Positions 45,990 to 53,120 of a DNA stretch of 64,000 bases are shown piece after piece. The position numbers and the translations under genes were made by a program. The DNA comes from Dictyostelium discoideum (taxonomy: Eukaryota). Position 1 is the first letter of the stretch. Every line of letters begins with the position of its first letter. Under the pieces are notes generated by a model. That model did no database searches. It was not told where the DNA came from and saw only the letters and a list, made by a program, of their open reading frames with translations. The stretch spans positions 192,001 through 256,000 of the forward strand of contig CM000152.2 in the NCBI GenBank assembly GCA_000004695.1, given 5' to 3'.

Positions 45990-48470
45990 TTTTAGTTTGT
46001 ATACGTGTGTCTAGTAATGATTGGCCAAATTTAAATAATTCTAGAATTTTATGTGAATGAGTTAATATGTATAATTTAAATTCTAATCTTGTTGGGTGTG
46101 TGGGTTTTTTTATTTTTTTTTTTATTTTTTGTTTTTTTTTTTTGTTTTTTGTTTTTTTTTTGTTTTATTGTAAAGAAATTATATGGGTGGTGGGATATTT
46201 TTGAAATTTTTTTTTTTTTTTTTTTAAAATTTTTTTTTTTTTTTTTTAGTTATATTTAACTATTTTATTAAGGAGAACGATCTGTTTAAAAATACAATCG
46301 CTATTGGATGAATTGTTGAGTAAAATGTGTGAGGGGGTTTTACAAACAAATCTAATATATTTATAAAAGTAAAAAAAATAATAATAATAATAGTAAATAA
46401 ATAATTTAACTATAATATATTATTAATTATAATATTGCTATTTTTGTTTTGTTTGAACTAATTGGGAAAAAGATTTTAGGCAGAGATAAATAGGTGGATT
46501 GGTTCTTAAAAATATTATTTATCTATATTTATAAATATAAATAGAAATTTATGTATGTGTCTAAATATAAATAGAAATATATTTATGTGTGTGTATGTGG
46601 GGGTGTGCGTGTGTTTATTTGTATTTGGACTTGAGAAAAAAAAAAAAAAAAAAAAAAAAAAATTAAAAGAATAAGGTGGACACAATAATATATAGATATA
46701 TTTATATAAATAAATATACAATGAAATTATTTGATAAAGAGTATACGCGAGTAATTTATCTATTTTTATTTTTATTTTTATTTTTATTTTTATTTTTATT
46801 TTTATTTTTATTTTTGATTTGTAATAAAGTAAAACTACAAAGGGTAATAATAATAATAATAATTATGTAATAAAAAAAAAAAAAAAAATAATAATAATAG
46901 AAAGATAGAAATGGGCGTGAAATTGAAAATACAATGAAAAAGGAATGATAGATTTAAAATAAATATAAATTTTAAATCTTTATCAAATTATTACAATTTA
47001 TATTTCAACAACAATGCACCACAATTATTTTTATTTTTATTTTTATTTTTATTATTTATTTTTATTTGTAAATATTTTATTTGTTTTTTTTTTTTTTTTT
47101 ATTTTGTTTTGTTTAATTTTATTTTATTTTATTTTATTTTTTTTAGGTTTTTTTTTTTTTTTTTGGGTTTTTTTTTTTTTTTTTTTTGGGTTTTATAGGT
47201 TTGCAAAAATTAATAAAATAAATAAAAAAATAAAAAAAATAAAAAAAAAATAAAAATAAAACTCTGATCCTGATGATGATAATTACTTTTGCTATTTTTT
47301 TTGTTTATTTTTTTTTTTTTTTTTTTTTTTGTTTAATGATATATTAATTTATTTTTATTTATTTATTTTTTTTTTTTTTATTTTTATTTTTGTGTGTTAA
47401 TTAGTTTACTAAAATTTTTTTTTTTTTTTACAGGTTTTTTGGAAAAAAATAAATCAAAAAAAAAAAAATAAAAATTAAAAAAAAAAAAAAAAATTAAAAA
47501 AAAAATTGAAAAAAAAAAATTGGAAAAAAAAAAAAAAAATTAAAAAAAAAAAAAATTATCATAATAATGTGGTTTTTTTTTTTGGTGTGTCGGTTGGTAT
47601 TAAAAAAAAAAAAATTATCAGTTGAATTATGTTATATATTTATTCTCTGTAACCATTTATAACCTTATTTTAATTTAATTAATTTTATTTTTATTTTTAT
47701 TTTTATTTATTATTACTATTATTTTTATTTTTTTTATTTATTTATTTATTTATTTATTTATTATTCATTTATTATTTACCTTTTTTATTTTTTTGGTGTA
47801 TTAATAAGTGTTTTTTTTTTTTTTTTATATTATTTTTTTTTTTTTTTAAATCTGGAAATTTTTTTTTTTTTACTTTTTTTATTTTATTTTTTTTTAATTT
47901 TTATTTTATTTTTTAATTTTTAATTTTTATTATTATGATCAAAATTCTATTTTTAAATTTTTGATGTCTTCAACATGGCACCTTTATGATGACCATCACA
48001 GAAAATTCAATTTCAAATGAGAATTCCTATAAGAAAAAAAATAAATTATAAAATTATTGATGATGTGGTCGAACTTTGAATTATTAAAATGGAGTGAAAT
48101 AAAAAAATAATAAAGTGGAACTTATAAAATTCCATCATCTCATTCCACGACACCCAATTTGGAATAGAAATGGTAGATCAAAATATCAGTTTGAGTGTAT
48201 GGATTAGATTAGTTTTTTTGTATAAAATTTTTTATGAAAAAAAGATTTTTTCATGATTCCTCGAATAAATGAAATTAAGTTTTTTTTTTATAAAAAAAAA
48301 TTAAAAATAAAAAAATAAAAATAAAAAAAATAAAAATAAAAAAAAAAAAAAAAAAAAAAAAAAAAAAAAAAAAAAAATCATTGGGGTTGGACAAAAATAA
48401 AATTTTTAAAATAGTCATAAATACACACACGCACGCTCACTGGCGCTCAGATCATAATTCAAATAATAAG

Positions 48471-50963: not shown

Positions 50964-53120
50964 ATGTTAAAAAATAAAAATATTTTAACTAATTTATTAA
51001 ATAATAATAAGAAATCATTTATTGGAACTAGTATAATATTTATTGCTTTTTATTGGGTTTATAATAATTATATTAAACAAATCGATAATAAAGATAAAGA
51101 TAATACTGAAAATAATAATGAAAATAATGAAAATAATAATATTGTTTTAAATAAAACAAATGATAATTCCAATATTGTTAAAAAAGTAAAATTTAATAAT
51201 TTCTTTAAATTATCAAATGATATTAAAATTCATGTTTTAAGTACACCAAAAGAATGTGATTTAATTTTAAATGAATTTTATCAATCATTATTATTAAAAA
51301 TGAATGATGATAAAAATTCATCATCATCATCATCATCATCATCATCATCATCATCATCATCATCATCATCATCATCATCATCATCATCATCATCATCATC
51401 ATCATCATCATCATCATCACCAATTAATACAAATACAATTATTGATGGTGCAGATATATTAAATCAACAACAAATAACAACAGAATCAAATGCGTTATTA
51501 TTCCCAAATTGTAGTGAAATAAACAATGATGGTTTAGATTTTATAATTGGTTTTGATGCTGAATGGAGTAATTTTAATTCTATTGATGATTCAACCACAA
51601 CTACAACTACAACATCAAAATATAATCATAAAGTTGCATTAATTCAATTATCAAGTAAAAATGAAACATTTTTAATTCAAGTTTCACAAATGGAGAAAAT
51701 TCCAACATCATTGGAGCAAATTTTAACAGATCCTCGTTTAATTAAGGTTGGTGTCGCAGTTTCACAAGATGCAGCAACTATTTTTCAAACATTTTCAGTT
51801 GTTACAAAAGGTTGTGTTGATTTAGTACCAATTGCAAGATTGACCAATTATGAAGGAAATGGATTAGCAAGTTTAGCATTAAACGTTATGAATGTAACAT
51901 TGGACAAATCAAATTTAATTCGTTGTAGTCATTGGGAGAATAAGGATTTAACAAATGATCAAATTCATTACGCAGCAGCTGATGCATGGGTTGGTAGAGA
52001 AATATTCGAAATTATGTATAACACTTATAAAAACTCAAAAACTGATCCAAATGAAAAAGATTTAATTTATACATTATGTAGACCATTCATTAATACAAGT
52101 TTTAAAGTTAAAGTTGAAAAATCAAAAAATAACAATACTGGTAAACCAAATCCAAATAAACCAATTAAAGAAAACATGTTAAAGAAAACTGTACCTGATA
52201 AAAGAGTATTATATGATAATTGTTTAATGTATAGTCCTGATGATGTATTATTGTGTAGTATTAGTAAAAAGAAAGTTGAATGGTATGTTAGTAGACAATT
52301 GGCAGATATAATTAAAGAAGAACCATTATCAATTAAATTAAAATTCCAACCACATGGTGAAGGTCATTCAGGTGACGATTATTATTTAGCTCATAAAGAG
52401 AATATTTGTGTAGTTTGTGGTTCAACTCATAAAATTCTTCGTCACTCTGTTGTACCACATTGTTATCGTCAATATTTACCAGAGGAAATTAAAAGTCATT
52501 CCTCACATGATGTATTACTATTATGTTGTGATTGCCATGCTAATATGGATAAAAGAGCTCAAATTATGAGAATGATGATTGCTAAACAATATAATGTACC
52601 ATTAGATAGTGAAAATAAAGTTTATATCACTGATAATACTTTATTAAAAATTACTAAAATGGCATTAATTGTTAAAAATCATTTTTATCAACAACAAGAA
52701 CAACAACAAGAAGAAGAAAAAACAATAATAAATGAAGATGGTAGTTGTAGTAGTAGTACAAATAAAATTTCAAATAAAAAATATAAATCAAATATACCAG
52801 AATATAAATTAGAAGAAATGAAGGTTGAAGTTGCAAATTATATTGGAAAGAAAGAAATTGACTTAAAGGATCTTGATCAATTAATTTATTTAAATCCAAA
52901 ACAAAAGAATGAAAATTATATTCCACATGAAAAACAAGTTATGGAAAAAGTTTTAGCTTTGGGTGAAAAAGGTATTTTTGAATTTATTCGTAGTTGGAGA
53001 AAAAATTTTATTGAAACTGTTCAACCAAAATTCTTATCACAACATTGGTCAATCAATAAAGATATTTTAAATAATTATAAACCAAAAAATCAAAAACCAA
53101 AACAAATTCAATTACAATAA
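50964..53120 (+). CDS. EXD2-like protein, paralog 2 (718 aa), tandem duplicate of the previous gene, carrying a 38-residue poly-Ser insertion.
   Basis: Near-identical exonuclease and HNH cores (FIIGFDAEW...YAAADAWVGREIFEIMYNTYKNSKTDPNEKD..., CVVCGSTHKILRHSVVPHCYRQYLPEEIKSHSSHDVLLLCCDCHANMDKR). It has its own N-terminal TM (IGTSIIFIAFYWVY) and divergent N- and C-terminal tails. Confidence 0.8.
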   Translation: MLKNKNILTNLLNNNKKSFIGTSIIFIAFYWVYNNYIKQIDNKDKDNTENNNENNENNNIVLNKTNDNSNIVKKVKFNNFFKLSNDIKIHVLSTPKECDLILNEFYQSLLLKMNDDKNSSSSSSSSSSSSSSSSSSSSSSSSSSSSSSSSSSPINTNTIIDGADILNQQQITTESNALLFPNCSEINNDGLDFIIGFDAEWSNFNSIDDSTTTTTTTSKYNHKVALIQLSSKNETFLIQVSQMEKIPTSLEQILTDPRLIKVGVAVSQDAATIFQTFSVVTKGCVDLVPIARLTNYEGNGLASLALNVMNVTLDKSNLIRCSHWENKDLTNDQIHYAAADAWVGREIFEIMYNTYKNSKTDPNEKDLIYTLCRPFINTSFKVKVEKSKNNNTGKPNPNKPIKENMLKKTVPDKRVLYDNCLMYSPDDVLLCSISKKKVEWYVSRQLADIIKEEPLSIKLKFQPHGEGHSGDDYYLAHKENICVVCGSTHKILRHSVVPHCYRQYLPEEIKSHSSHDVLLLCCDCHANMDKRAQIMRMMIAKQYNVPLDSENKVYITDNTLLKITKMALIVKNHFYQQQEQQQEEEKTIINEDGSCSSSTNKISNKKYKSNIPEYKLEEMKVEVANYIGKKEIDLKDLDQLIYLNPKQKNENYIPHEKQVMEKVLALGEKGIFEFIRSWRKNFIETVQPKFLSQHWSINKDILNNYKPKNQKPKQIQLQ
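51318..51419 (+). repeat. Coding (TCA)n microsatellite of about 34 units, giving a poly-Ser tract inside EXD2-like paralog 2.
   Basis: An uninterrupted tcatcatca... run between KMNDDKNS and PINTNTIIDGADI. Paralog 1 has only NSPPMIDGADG at this position. Confidence 0.9.

Follow-up and report, generated by a model that had tools for sequence, protein, structure and literature searches.

A tandem pair of EXD2 co-orthologues in Dictyostelium discoideum with a conversion-homogenised core and a predicted PLMP-like and HNH-like C-terminal module

The window analysed here, a 64-kb stretch of the Dictyostelium discoideum AX4 genome, contains two head-to-tail genes on the + strand, both intronless and intact, whose features are collected in Table 1. 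A tandem pair about 430 bp apart had been described in the original prediction, and the two reading frames lie as it placed them, with a spacer of 432 bp which presumably holds the putative 3' end of copy 1 and the promoter of copy 2. The copy 1 open reading frame covers 48381-50531, or 716 aa if counted from a TTG; because its 686-aa translation matches the annotated AX4 protein XP_642107.2 / Q54YU5 with 100% identity and 100% coverage, the ATG at 48471 is taken as the true start. Public annotation already includes both genes. Copy 2 had been entertained as an unannotated gene, and this idea was dropped, as a 718-aa gene is called at its position in assembly GCA_054883475.1 and other homopolymer-rich paralogues are equally absent from the protein collection. 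The two proteins share 68% identity with 10% gaps, and at the DNA level the copies are 95% identical in the core blocks and ~83% identical in the C-terminal part. The pair, with conserved neighbouring genes, is found in four genomes (D. discoideum, D. cf. discoideum, D. citrinum and D. dimigraforme), whereas D. purpureum and Heterostelium have a single copy at the sampled locus, the remainder of these two genomes having been covered by protein search only. A tRNA scan of the 64-kb window found none, and a literature search found no study of EXD2 in Dictyostelium.

Table 1. Features of the EXD2 gene pair (positions in the window)
Feature	Position	Strand	Details
Copy 1 CDS	48471..50531	+	686 aa plus stop; derived EXD2 paralogue
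Copy 1 hydrophobic segment, Lys-flanked, putative signal anchor	48531..48590	+	res 21-40, FFNTSILLLVFYWIYKNVLI; hydrophobicity maximum
Further conversion block	48708-48983 (copy 1) with 51180-51569 (copy 2)		
Copy 1 DEDDy 3'-5' exonuclease domain	48726..49454	+	res 86-328; D167 E169 D239 Y306 D310; PF01612
Exonuclease-core conversion block	49053..49472	+	copy 1 side; partner 51636-52055
Further conversion block	49614-49853 (copy 1) with 52179-52418 (copy 2)		
Copy 1 PLMP-like beta-sheet domain	49638..49799	+	res 390-443
Copy 1 HNH-like Cys4/His module	49830..50036	+	res 454-522; predicted beta-beta-alpha unit; C458 C461 C497 C500; H470 H488 H491 D492 H501
Copy 1 C-terminal helical domain	50058..50459	+	ends in family-invariant WR..F....QP..L...W motif
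Spacer, AT-rich	50532..50963	.	432 bp; copy 1 stop to copy 2 ATG
Copy 2 CDS	50964..53120	+	718 aa plus stop; ancestral-like EXD2 paralogue
Copy 2 hydrophobic segment	51018..51074	+	res 19-37, FIGTSIIFIAFYWVYNNYI; hydrophobicity maximum
Copy 2 exonuclease domain	51201..52037	+	res 80-358 incl. Ser tract; D198 E200 D269 Y336 D340
Copy 2 (TCA)34 = Ser34	51318..51419	+	insertion in loop ahead of exonuclease core
Copy 2 PLMP-like domain	52203..52364	+	res 414-467; by alignment to copy 1
Copy 2 HNH-like module	52395..52601	+	res 478-546; C482 C485 C521 C524
Copy 2 C-terminal helical domain	52623..53060	+	

Judged by their sequences, both genes are full-length EXD2 orthologues, and together they are the Dictyostelium co-orthologues of EXD2. 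Pfam PF01612 matches the two copies at E 9e-21 and 2e-22, and the five catalytic residues, whose human EXD2 counterparts are D108, E110, D171, Y242 and D246 (PMC6648332), are all present in both copies and invariant in all eight paralogues of the four genomes. Searched against the PDB, the sequence finds the human EXD2 exonuclease domain best (1.2e-16), ahead of WRN-exo (7e-14) and far ahead of Mut-7 (2e-3), which bears out the EXD2-like label given at the outset. Every named homologue from outside the dictyostelids is an EXD2, 26-34% identical in alignments that cover 70-80% of the length. The exonuclease and Cys/His motifs first quoted occur in both copies, and the resemblance to EXD2 extends to the latter, as the C-terminal block and the tail motif vary little or not at all within the family: 39 alignment columns spanning the exonuclease and C-terminal parts are invariant in 39 family members, among them C458, C461, C497, C500, D492, K486, R478 and P474 (copy 1 numbering), as well as W642, R643, F646, P652 and W659 in the tail.

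Ahead of the exonuclease, a Lys-flanked hydrophobic 17-mer is the whole-protein maximum in 8/8 copies, with Kyte-Doolittle means of 1.34-1.62 compared with 1.16-2.07 in animal EXD2; the values of 1.62 for copy 1 and 1.34 for copy 2 are moderate, and still the highest in each protein. In the predicted structure the copy 1 segment lies within a helix of residues 16-46, followed by a disordered linker. By homology, the proteins would be membrane-tethered, with the catalytic part facing the cytosol; the membrane concerned is the mitochondrial outer one in animals. The serine tract of copy 2, first counted as 38 residues, is in fact a run of 34, and the corresponding tract of D. cf. discoideum is just ~6 Ser long.

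The near-identity of the cores is the product of recurrent gene conversion between the paralogues combined with purifying selection. In alignment columns 540-615, paralogue dS within the four species is 0.08, 0.08, 0.00 and 0.025, against an orthologue dS of 0.24-0.49. The three conversion-like blocks, delimited and tested on one alignment, hold 60 species-grouping and 12 paralogue-grouping sites, whereas columns 626-888 hold 5 and 68 (Fisher p = 2e-22). Block boundaries have no bearing on the dS matrices or on the permutation test, and identical tracts of 113-222 nt between the paralogues occur in every species (p <= 2e-4, 5000 permutations). The anchor and the HNH-like/C-terminal part group by orthology, and D. 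dimigraforme copy 1 carries an N-terminus of the copy 2 type. A neighbour-joining bootstrap of the whole N-terminal two-thirds does not group the paralogues by species, because converted and paralogue-specific blocks are mixed in this partition; conversion became visible only when dS and site patterns were examined block by block. An old duplication free of conversion, in which strong purifying selection on the exonuclease alone kept the cores alike, would agree with the very low core dN (0.01) and with the invariance of all catalytic residues. Purifying selection on a protein, however, cannot keep silent sites identical, and the within-species dS of 0.00-0.08 where orthologues differ by 0.24-0.49, the 60 nucleotide sites at which the two paralogues of a single species or clade share a change seen nowhere else, the identical tracts longer than in all 5000 permutations and the exchanged N-terminus of D. 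dimigraforme copy 1 render this explanation very improbable. Since the duplication, gene conversion has kept the exonuclease core and also the PLMP-like domain alike, and selection has preserved a paralogue-specific form of the anchor, of two linkers, of the HNH-like unit and of the C-terminal domain.

Both copies appear to be maintained, and they have diverged unequally. Among the 35 polarised fixed paralogue-diagnostic sites, 30 are derived in copy 1 and 5 in copy 2 (p = 2e-5), and copy 2 shares 59% identity and the diagnostic residues with the one D. purpureum gene. Fixed differences between the paralogue clades number 59 N : 9 S, compared with 76 N : 85 S within clades (p = 1e-8), an excess of N which may partly reflect the erasure of fixed S differences by conversion or saturation, so that positive selection stays unproven. 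Copy 2 has stayed close to the ancestral sequence, and copy 1 has gained a burst of amino-acid changes which are now conserved. Functional divergence, suggested earlier as sub-functionalisation, is plausible; its asymmetry speaks against the symmetric form, and neofunctionalisation of copy 1 is the better fit because this copy bears most of the derived changes. That one copy is instead decaying, as a pseudogene or an untranscribed gene, could be argued from the faster evolution of copy 1, the 34-Ser expansion in copy 2 and the absence of the exact copy 2 protein from the protein collection. This absence looks like a database artefact, as the homopolymer-rich copy 1 proteins of D. citrinum and D. 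dimigraforme are likewise missing despite called genes, and copy 2 itself is called in GCA_054883475.1. All eight genes of the four species have intact reading frames with every DEDDy and Cys/His residue in place. Orthologue dN/dS is far below 1 in both copies, at ~0-0.06 in the HNH-like block (dN 0-0.013 against dS 0.14-0.51) and 0.1-0.4 in the C-terminal domain; decay is accordingly most unlikely.

The duplication postdates the separation of the D. purpureum lineage and predates the divergence of D. discoideum, D. citrinum and D. dimigraforme; it is not the recent event first proposed. The N-terminal and C-terminal parts do differ by paralogue, in the anchor and in the C-terminal part, as had been noted. 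A very recent duplication, with cores alike for lack of time and fast-diverging tails, accords with the 95% identity of the core DNA and a dS of just 0.05-0.1 in parts of it, and is nevertheless scarcely credible, since both copies have the same neighbours in four species, the C-terminal halves cluster by paralogue (the copy 1 genes forming one clade with 100% bootstrap in the C-terminal partition tree), the C-terminal domain shows a paralogue dS of up to 0.36-0.68 and the anchor one of about 1.2, and such an event cannot yield silent-site distances varying up to ~15-fold along one gene. Independent duplications in each species are excluded by the common copy 1-specific residues.

In a confident structural model, the C-terminal module of EXD2 combines a PLMP-like domain with an HNH-like beta-beta-alpha unit on its C-terminal side, and the solved structures closest to this module are IscB and IsrB. 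The predicted PLMP-like domain has a four-stranded antiparallel sheet and a helix, and the HNH-like unit has a predicted beta-beta-alpha-metal fold and matches the HNH endonucleases T5 SciA and GVE2. The EXD2 family profile aligns to the HNH domain of IscB, which in the PDB is its sole meaningful match and a weak one (E 0.007), eL32 and KRas, at E 0.2-1, making up most of the noise that remained. A putative CxxC...CxxC zinc site has all four Cys in 45/46 sequences. The HNH-like label of the original prediction is thus supported at the level of the modelled fold and not at that of the canonical catalytic site, as the general-base His, which is the second H of the HH/DH motif at the end of strand 1, is replaced by Ser in dictyostelids (RHSMVP) and by Asn in animals (RKNVVP); in the profile alignment, IscB HYHH-IVP stands against EXD2 vRKs-vvP, with a register that may be off by one residue. 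The residue before the lost general-base position is His in 12/46 sequences, all from protists, and Lys in 29/46, and protist EXD2s with this His might retain an HNH-type nicking activity that animals lost. Sequence searches fell short of family level. No Pfam HNH family matched above threshold (copy 2 reached E 0.39 with HNH_2, 11 bits against a cut-off of 21, and 3/25 family members matched HNH_2, at best E 0.098); Pfam searches with isolated C- and N-terminal fragments gave nothing above threshold and otherwise low-complexity noise, and single-sequence phmmer with the C-terminal fragment gave only chance matches in the PDB. The P-L-M-P motif itself is not conserved in EXD2, where PDD-VLLS or PDG-LLC aligns with it; vertebrate EXD2 scored 14-17 bits with the RRXRR HMM, short of the cut-off of 25, the Dictyostelium proteins gave no match, and hhalign against the single DtIsrB PLMP sequence was weak (E 0.004, probability 9%). 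No paper naming both EXD2 and PLMP was found in a literature search. We tentatively suggest, as a possibility somewhat short of even, that the module is a true homologue of the prokaryotic PLMP and HNH pair of IscB-type OMEGA nucleases, and that early in eukaryote history it was fused with a membrane anchor and a DEDDy exonuclease.

Taken as a whole, the locus is very probably a pair of EXD2 co-orthologues born after the separation from D. purpureum, with a core homogenised by conversion, divergent anchors, linkers and C-terminal parts, and copy 1 as the derived member. From N- to C-terminus, each protein would comprise a signal-anchor-type helix, a disordered low-complexity linker, the DEDDy exonuclease, a second linker, and a module whose parts are the PLMP-like domain, the Cys4 HNH-like unit and the helical domain. 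Both enzymes would use two-metal catalysis to shorten single-stranded DNA or RNA from the 3' end, and the C-terminal module would probably serve nucleic-acid or partner recognition. The cellular role of EXD2 is disputed between nuclear end resection with fork protection and RNA metabolism at the mitochondrial surface, and to our knowledge no function has been assigned to its C-terminal half. Dictyostelium is genetically tractable and has two EXD2 genes with one catalytic core and differing anchors and HNH-like/C-terminal modules, and could therefore reveal what the anchor and the module do; the PLMP-like/HNH-like assignment offers a specific hypothesis for what is still the uncharacterised half of an enzyme of human genome maintenance. 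If the homology is true, the 'HNH-like' region of EXD2 is a two-domain nucleic-acid-recognition unit, because the PLMP domain of IsrB touches RNA hairpins. The pair would then be a natural domain swap, with a shared exonuclease and PLMP core, and the stably differing HNH-like/C-terminal units and the differing anchors would suggest that the two proteins have distinct specificities for substrate, partner or membrane.

Compared with other DEDDy nucleases, the WRN exonuclease domain and Mut-7/Nibbler share the fold and the catalytic residues with the Dictyostelium pair, and lack an N-terminal anchor and a PLMP-like/HNH-like C-terminal module. The modelled copy 1 exonuclease domain has a Foldseek match at E about 1e-11, and superposes better on WRN-exo (TM 0.82), the second-best match by sequence, than on the EXD2 crystal chains (TM 0.50); membership of the WRN-exo or Mut-7/Nibbler type is nonetheless highly implausible, since EXD2 scores best by sequence, the putative anchor and the whole PLMP-like/HNH-like/helical module are common to EXD2 proteins only, and the low TM-score arises because the crystal is a domain-swapped dimer (PMC6648332) and the model a monomer. 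Human EXD2 has TM, exonuclease and HNH-like domains, is located at the outer mitochondrial membrane and has Mn/Mg-dependent 3'-5' exonuclease activity (PMC6648332). The metazoan enzyme (human Q9NVH0; structures 6K17-6K1E) shares with the Dictyostelium pair the order of N-terminal hydrophobic segment, DEDDy exonuclease, C-terminal Cys/His module and tail motif, the human 'HNH-like' module at 408-470 having its counterpart, with the conserved tail, in both copies. Metazoan EXD2 is a single gene rather than two tandem paralogues, lacks the long, low-complexity linkers of Dictyostelium, and has Lys instead of the dictyostelid His before the HNH 'catalytic' position. As for the zinc-containing HNH (His-Me finger) endonucleases, the general-base His of T5 SciA and GVE2 aligns to the dictyostelid Ser or animal Asn, and EXD2 has ~20 conserved residues (VP.xYR..xP...K.H.SHD) inserted between two strands. 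Concerted evolution of tandem paralogues by gene conversion is a general, well-known phenomenon, and systems with selected divergent segments show the same mosaic of homogenised and paralogue-specific parts, with tracts of 100-220 nt; the Dictyostelium EXD2 pair is a clean four-species example with nothing unusual about it, an ordinary gene-family story in which the structural side result is the notable part. In that respect, the IscB/IsrB OMEGA nucleases combine a PLMP domain, which is the N-terminal part of Pfam RRXRR (PF14239), with an HNH domain. The sequence similarity of EXD2 to them is under family thresholds and, unlike them, EXD2 has neither a RuvC domain nor a known guide RNA; its PLMP-like and HNH-like domains sit side by side, in contrast to the HNH domain of IscB, which interrupts RuvC.

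The interval under study, in a strongly AT-rich window, holds two long plus-strand open reading frames, with a 432-bp spacer between the stop codon of copy 1 and the ATG of copy 2. The original prediction of a tandem gene pair holds with small corrections only: copy 1 had been begun at a TTG which merely opens its reading frame, the annotated start being a downstream ATG, and the serine tract of copy 2, given as 38 residues, is 34 residues long and encoded by a perfect (TCA)34. Every sequence motif that had been quoted was found in both copies. The two proteins align with 68% identity and 10% gaps; in nucleotide sequence, identity is 95% in the core blocks and approximately 83% in the C-terminal part. 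Against the newer AX4 assembly (GCA_054883475.1), positions 40423-58000 show 99.46% identity, with gaps opened 21 times in 17.5 kb; two nucleotide differences fall in copy 2 and none in copy 1 or the spacer. The otherwise AT-rich spacer contains a G-rich island, GGGGGAGGGGG. The overall interest of the pair is modest, since both genes are already in the annotation and the phenomena involved are well known.

Features of the window, with the basis of each assignment
Feature	Position	Strand	Basis
ELMO/CED-12 gene	2635-5013		Pfam neighbour annotation
TPP-dependent enzyme gene	6473-8005		Pfam neighbour annotation
RasGEF gene	11314-13644		Pfam neighbour annotation
Lon protease gene	20586-22784		Pfam neighbour annotation
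ORF, 549 aa	30574-32223	+	No Pfam match at E <= 1e-5
ORF, 698 aa	32999-35095	+	No Pfam match at E <= 1e-5
ORF, 1210 aa	37027-40659	-	No Pfam match at E <= 1e-5
ORF, 730 aa	43235-45427	-	No Pfam match at E <= 1e-5
Copy 1, long ORF from TTG	48381-50531	+	ORF
Copy 1, from annotated ATG	48471-50531	+	Annotation
Copy 1 R469-H470-S471	49875-49883	+	General-base neighbourhood alignment
G-rich island in spacer	50640-50655		Composition
Copy 2	50964-53120	+	ORF
Copy 2 (TCA)34 tract	51318-51419		Repeat count
AMP-binding enzyme gene	58014-59708		Pfam neighbour annotation
Dynamin gene	60381-62669		Pfam neighbour annotation

Pfam DNA_pol_A_exo1 (PF01612) is recognised in each protein at E ~1e-21, and in searches of PDB sequences the human EXD2 exonuclease domain (6K17) ranks first (E 1.2e-16), followed by WRN exonuclease (7e-14) and, far lower, by Mut-7/Nibbler (2e-3). 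Beyond the dictyostelid orthologues, matches in the protein collection are overwhelmingly annotated as EXD2 (from insects, molluscs, amphioxus and vertebrates, with 26-34% identity over 70-80% of the query), and they also include Blastocystis and ciliate proteins. Similarity to EXD2 extends beyond the exonuclease domain: invariant in a 39-sequence alignment are the ExoI-III residues, four Cys, D492, K486, R478 and P474 of the C-terminal block, and a tail motif consisting of W642, R643, F646, P652 and W659. The proposed EXD2-like identity is thus borne out by the domain match, the PDB ranking and the conserved C-terminal block and tail. In the full-length model of copy 1 (pLDDT 79.6), an N-terminal helix (residues 16-46) is joined by a disordered linker to the exonuclease domain, and this by another such linker to a compact C-terminal region. 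Structural matches of the modelled exonuclease domain are to WRN-exo and EXD2-exo (E ~1e-11), and the lower TM-score to the EXD2 structure fits the domain-swapped dimer of the EXD2 crystal (PMC6648332). An N-terminal hydrophobic 17-mer, lysine-flanked as it is in animal EXD2, is the hydrophobicity maximum of every paralogue, though only moderate, and is likely a membrane anchor in both copies. The protein collection lacks AX4 copy 2, D. citrinum copy 1 and D. dimigraforme copy 1, which are the paralogues with long homopolymer runs; these carry a '-' for Pfam in the gene tables, yet the genes are called, and their absence from the collection should not be taken as missing annotation.

The tandem pair is found in the same gene neighbourhood in four genomes (the newer AX4 assembly, D. 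cf. discoideum, D. citrinum and D. dimigraforme). In all four the pair is preceded by genes for a ubiquitin-conjugating enzyme and for a protein of 876 aa and is followed by a Dicty_CTDC gene, and none of the eight genes is disrupted or contains an intron. D. purpureum and Heterostelium album have a single gene at the locus, tblastn detecting no second copy within the fetched 17-18 kb, and protein searches returned one protein per species in D. purpureum, Acytostelium, Heterostelium and Cavenderia. Therefore, the duplication is limited to the D. discoideum/citrinum/dimigraforme clade and is older than the divergence of these species, so that the duplication had wrongly been called recent.

The near-identity of the cores is instead the product of gene conversion, that is, of concerted evolution after the older duplication. 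In a nine-sequence alignment, the anchor and the C-terminal third sort cleanly by paralogue, and the exonuclease and pre-HNH region carries many species-specific substitutions common to both paralogues of that species. In columns 540-615, dS between paralogues within a species is 0.08, 0.08, 0.00 and 0.025, against 0.24-0.49 between orthologues, and the relation is reversed in the C-terminal domain (0.36-0.68 for within-species paralogues, 0.07-0.27 for orthologues). Biallelic nucleotide sites grouping sequences by species or clade outnumber those grouping them by paralogue, 60 to 12, in the conversion-like blocks (columns 149-304, 349-488 and 544-625), compared with 5 to 68 in columns 626-888 (Fisher's p = 2e-22), and a GENECONV-style permutation supports an identical paralogue tract in each of the four species (113, 173, 222 and 201 nt; p <= 2e-4 each). 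By sliding window, the conversion-like blocks cover the pre-ExoI segment, the exonuclease core and the PLMP-like domain as far as the first CxxC. Paralogue-specific sequence persists in the short variable loop that follows ExoI, the linker between the domains, the HNH-like unit and the C-terminal domain. In the anchor, orthologue dS is low in most pairs and within-species paralogues differ by a dS of approximately 1.2, except in D. dimigraforme (0.27), because copy 1 of this species carries an anchor of the copy 2 type, SFIGTSIIFIAFYW (5' end, positions 4988-5110 of its locus L003). Either the 5' end was converted there, or the copy 1-type anchor is younger than the branching-off of D. dimigraforme.

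Substitution rates place both copies under purifying selection: in the HNH-like block of each paralogue, orthologue dN is 0-0.013 against a dS of 0.14-0.51, and in the C-terminal domain orthologue dN/dS is ~0.1-0.4. With D. purpureum used for polarisation, copy 1 carries the derived state at 30 of the fixed amino-acid sites that distinguish the paralogues and copy 2 at 5 (binomial p = 2e-5), which marks copy 1 as the derived paralogue and copy 2 as the conservative one. Over the 215 non-converted C-terminal codons, fixed differences between the paralogue clades comprise 59 non-synonymous and 9 synonymous changes, compared with 76 and 85, respectively, within clades (p = 1e-8), which indicates a phase of rapid amino-acid change once the gene had duplicated, and constraint thereafter. 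The 59:9 excess shows accelerated protein evolution, short of proof of positive selection, since conversion and saturation can both erase fixed synonymous differences.

The same two linker positions have repeatedly gained low-complexity expansions, which differ between species and between paralogues: Ser34 in AX4 copy 2 against approximately six Ser in D. cf. discoideum, Asn runs totalling ~70 residues in D. dimigraforme copy 1, and a Thr run in the linker of D. citrinum copy 1; in D. dimigraforme copy 2, EQ repeats follow the HNH-like helix. In D. purpureum, a gene of the XLF/XRCC4 family, a non-homologous end-joining factor, lies two genes upstream of the single EXD2 gene (4010-5451 of locus L004). 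The upstream neighbours in D. discoideum differ from this arrangement, and the proximity may be coincidental. A TPP-enzyme gene is also found near the D. purpureum EXD2 gene, and hence the wider synteny is partly kept. Strand composition is extreme in the stretches that hold two of the four ORFs lacking a Pfam match (GC skew of -0.63 and -0.71; AT skew reaching 0.42).

The most novel by-product is a PLMP-like/HNH-like reading of the EXD2 C-terminus. A separate, confident model of copy 1 residues 370-686 (pLDDT 86.8, pTM 0.77) shows a small sheet of four strands accompanied by a single helix, a beta-beta-alpha unit in which both CxxC pairs sit, and a helical domain. Since IsrB possesses a PLMP domain and lacks an HNH domain (PMC9581776), the element which it has in common with the EXD2 module must be the former. 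Independently of the model, this assignment is backed, albeit weakly, by two results at sequence level: for a profile built from the EXD2 block, an IscB ranks first among PDB sequences (E 0.007), one stretch aligning to its residues 9-51 (PLMP) and another to 332-384 (HNH), and vertebrate EXD2 gives sub-threshold matches to Pfam RRXRR (profile positions 6-48) in the region immediately preceding the HNH-like block. The PLMP sequence scores fall under family cut-offs, hhalign to one IsrB PLMP sequence gives a probability of 9%, and the PLMP motif itself is not conserved in EXD2. In the literature searched, no paper naming EXD2 together with PLMP was found, which does not in itself make the link new.

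What is shown here is two intact EXD2 co-orthologues with an old duplication, a conversion mosaic and an asymmetric divergence concentrated in the anchor, linkers, HNH-like unit and C-terminal domain. By analogy with the human enzyme, which is anchored in the outer mitochondrial membrane, each protein would be anchored tail-out to a membrane, probably the same one, and would degrade 3' ends of single-stranded DNA or RNA with two metal ions (PMC6648332). As suggested by IsrB, the PLMP-like/HNH-like module may bind nucleic acid or partners, and the divergence pattern is consistent with paralogues that have one common catalytic engine and differ in location or recognition. Compared with IscB, whose HNH domain reads HYHH-IVP, the general-base His aligns to Ser in dictyostelids (RHSMVP) and to Asn in animal EXD2 (RKNVVP), so that the proposed HNH-like character stands as a statement about fold and does not extend to membership of the HNH family with canonical catalysis. 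Immediately before this position, dictyostelids, Blastocystis and one ciliate carry His, and all animal EXD2 carry Lys (K 29, H 12, Y 4 and one gap among 46 sequences). Compared with human EXD2, with its catalytic residues D108, E110, D171, Y242 and D246 (PMC6648332), the Dictyostelium proteins keep the order of parts and all five catalytic residues.
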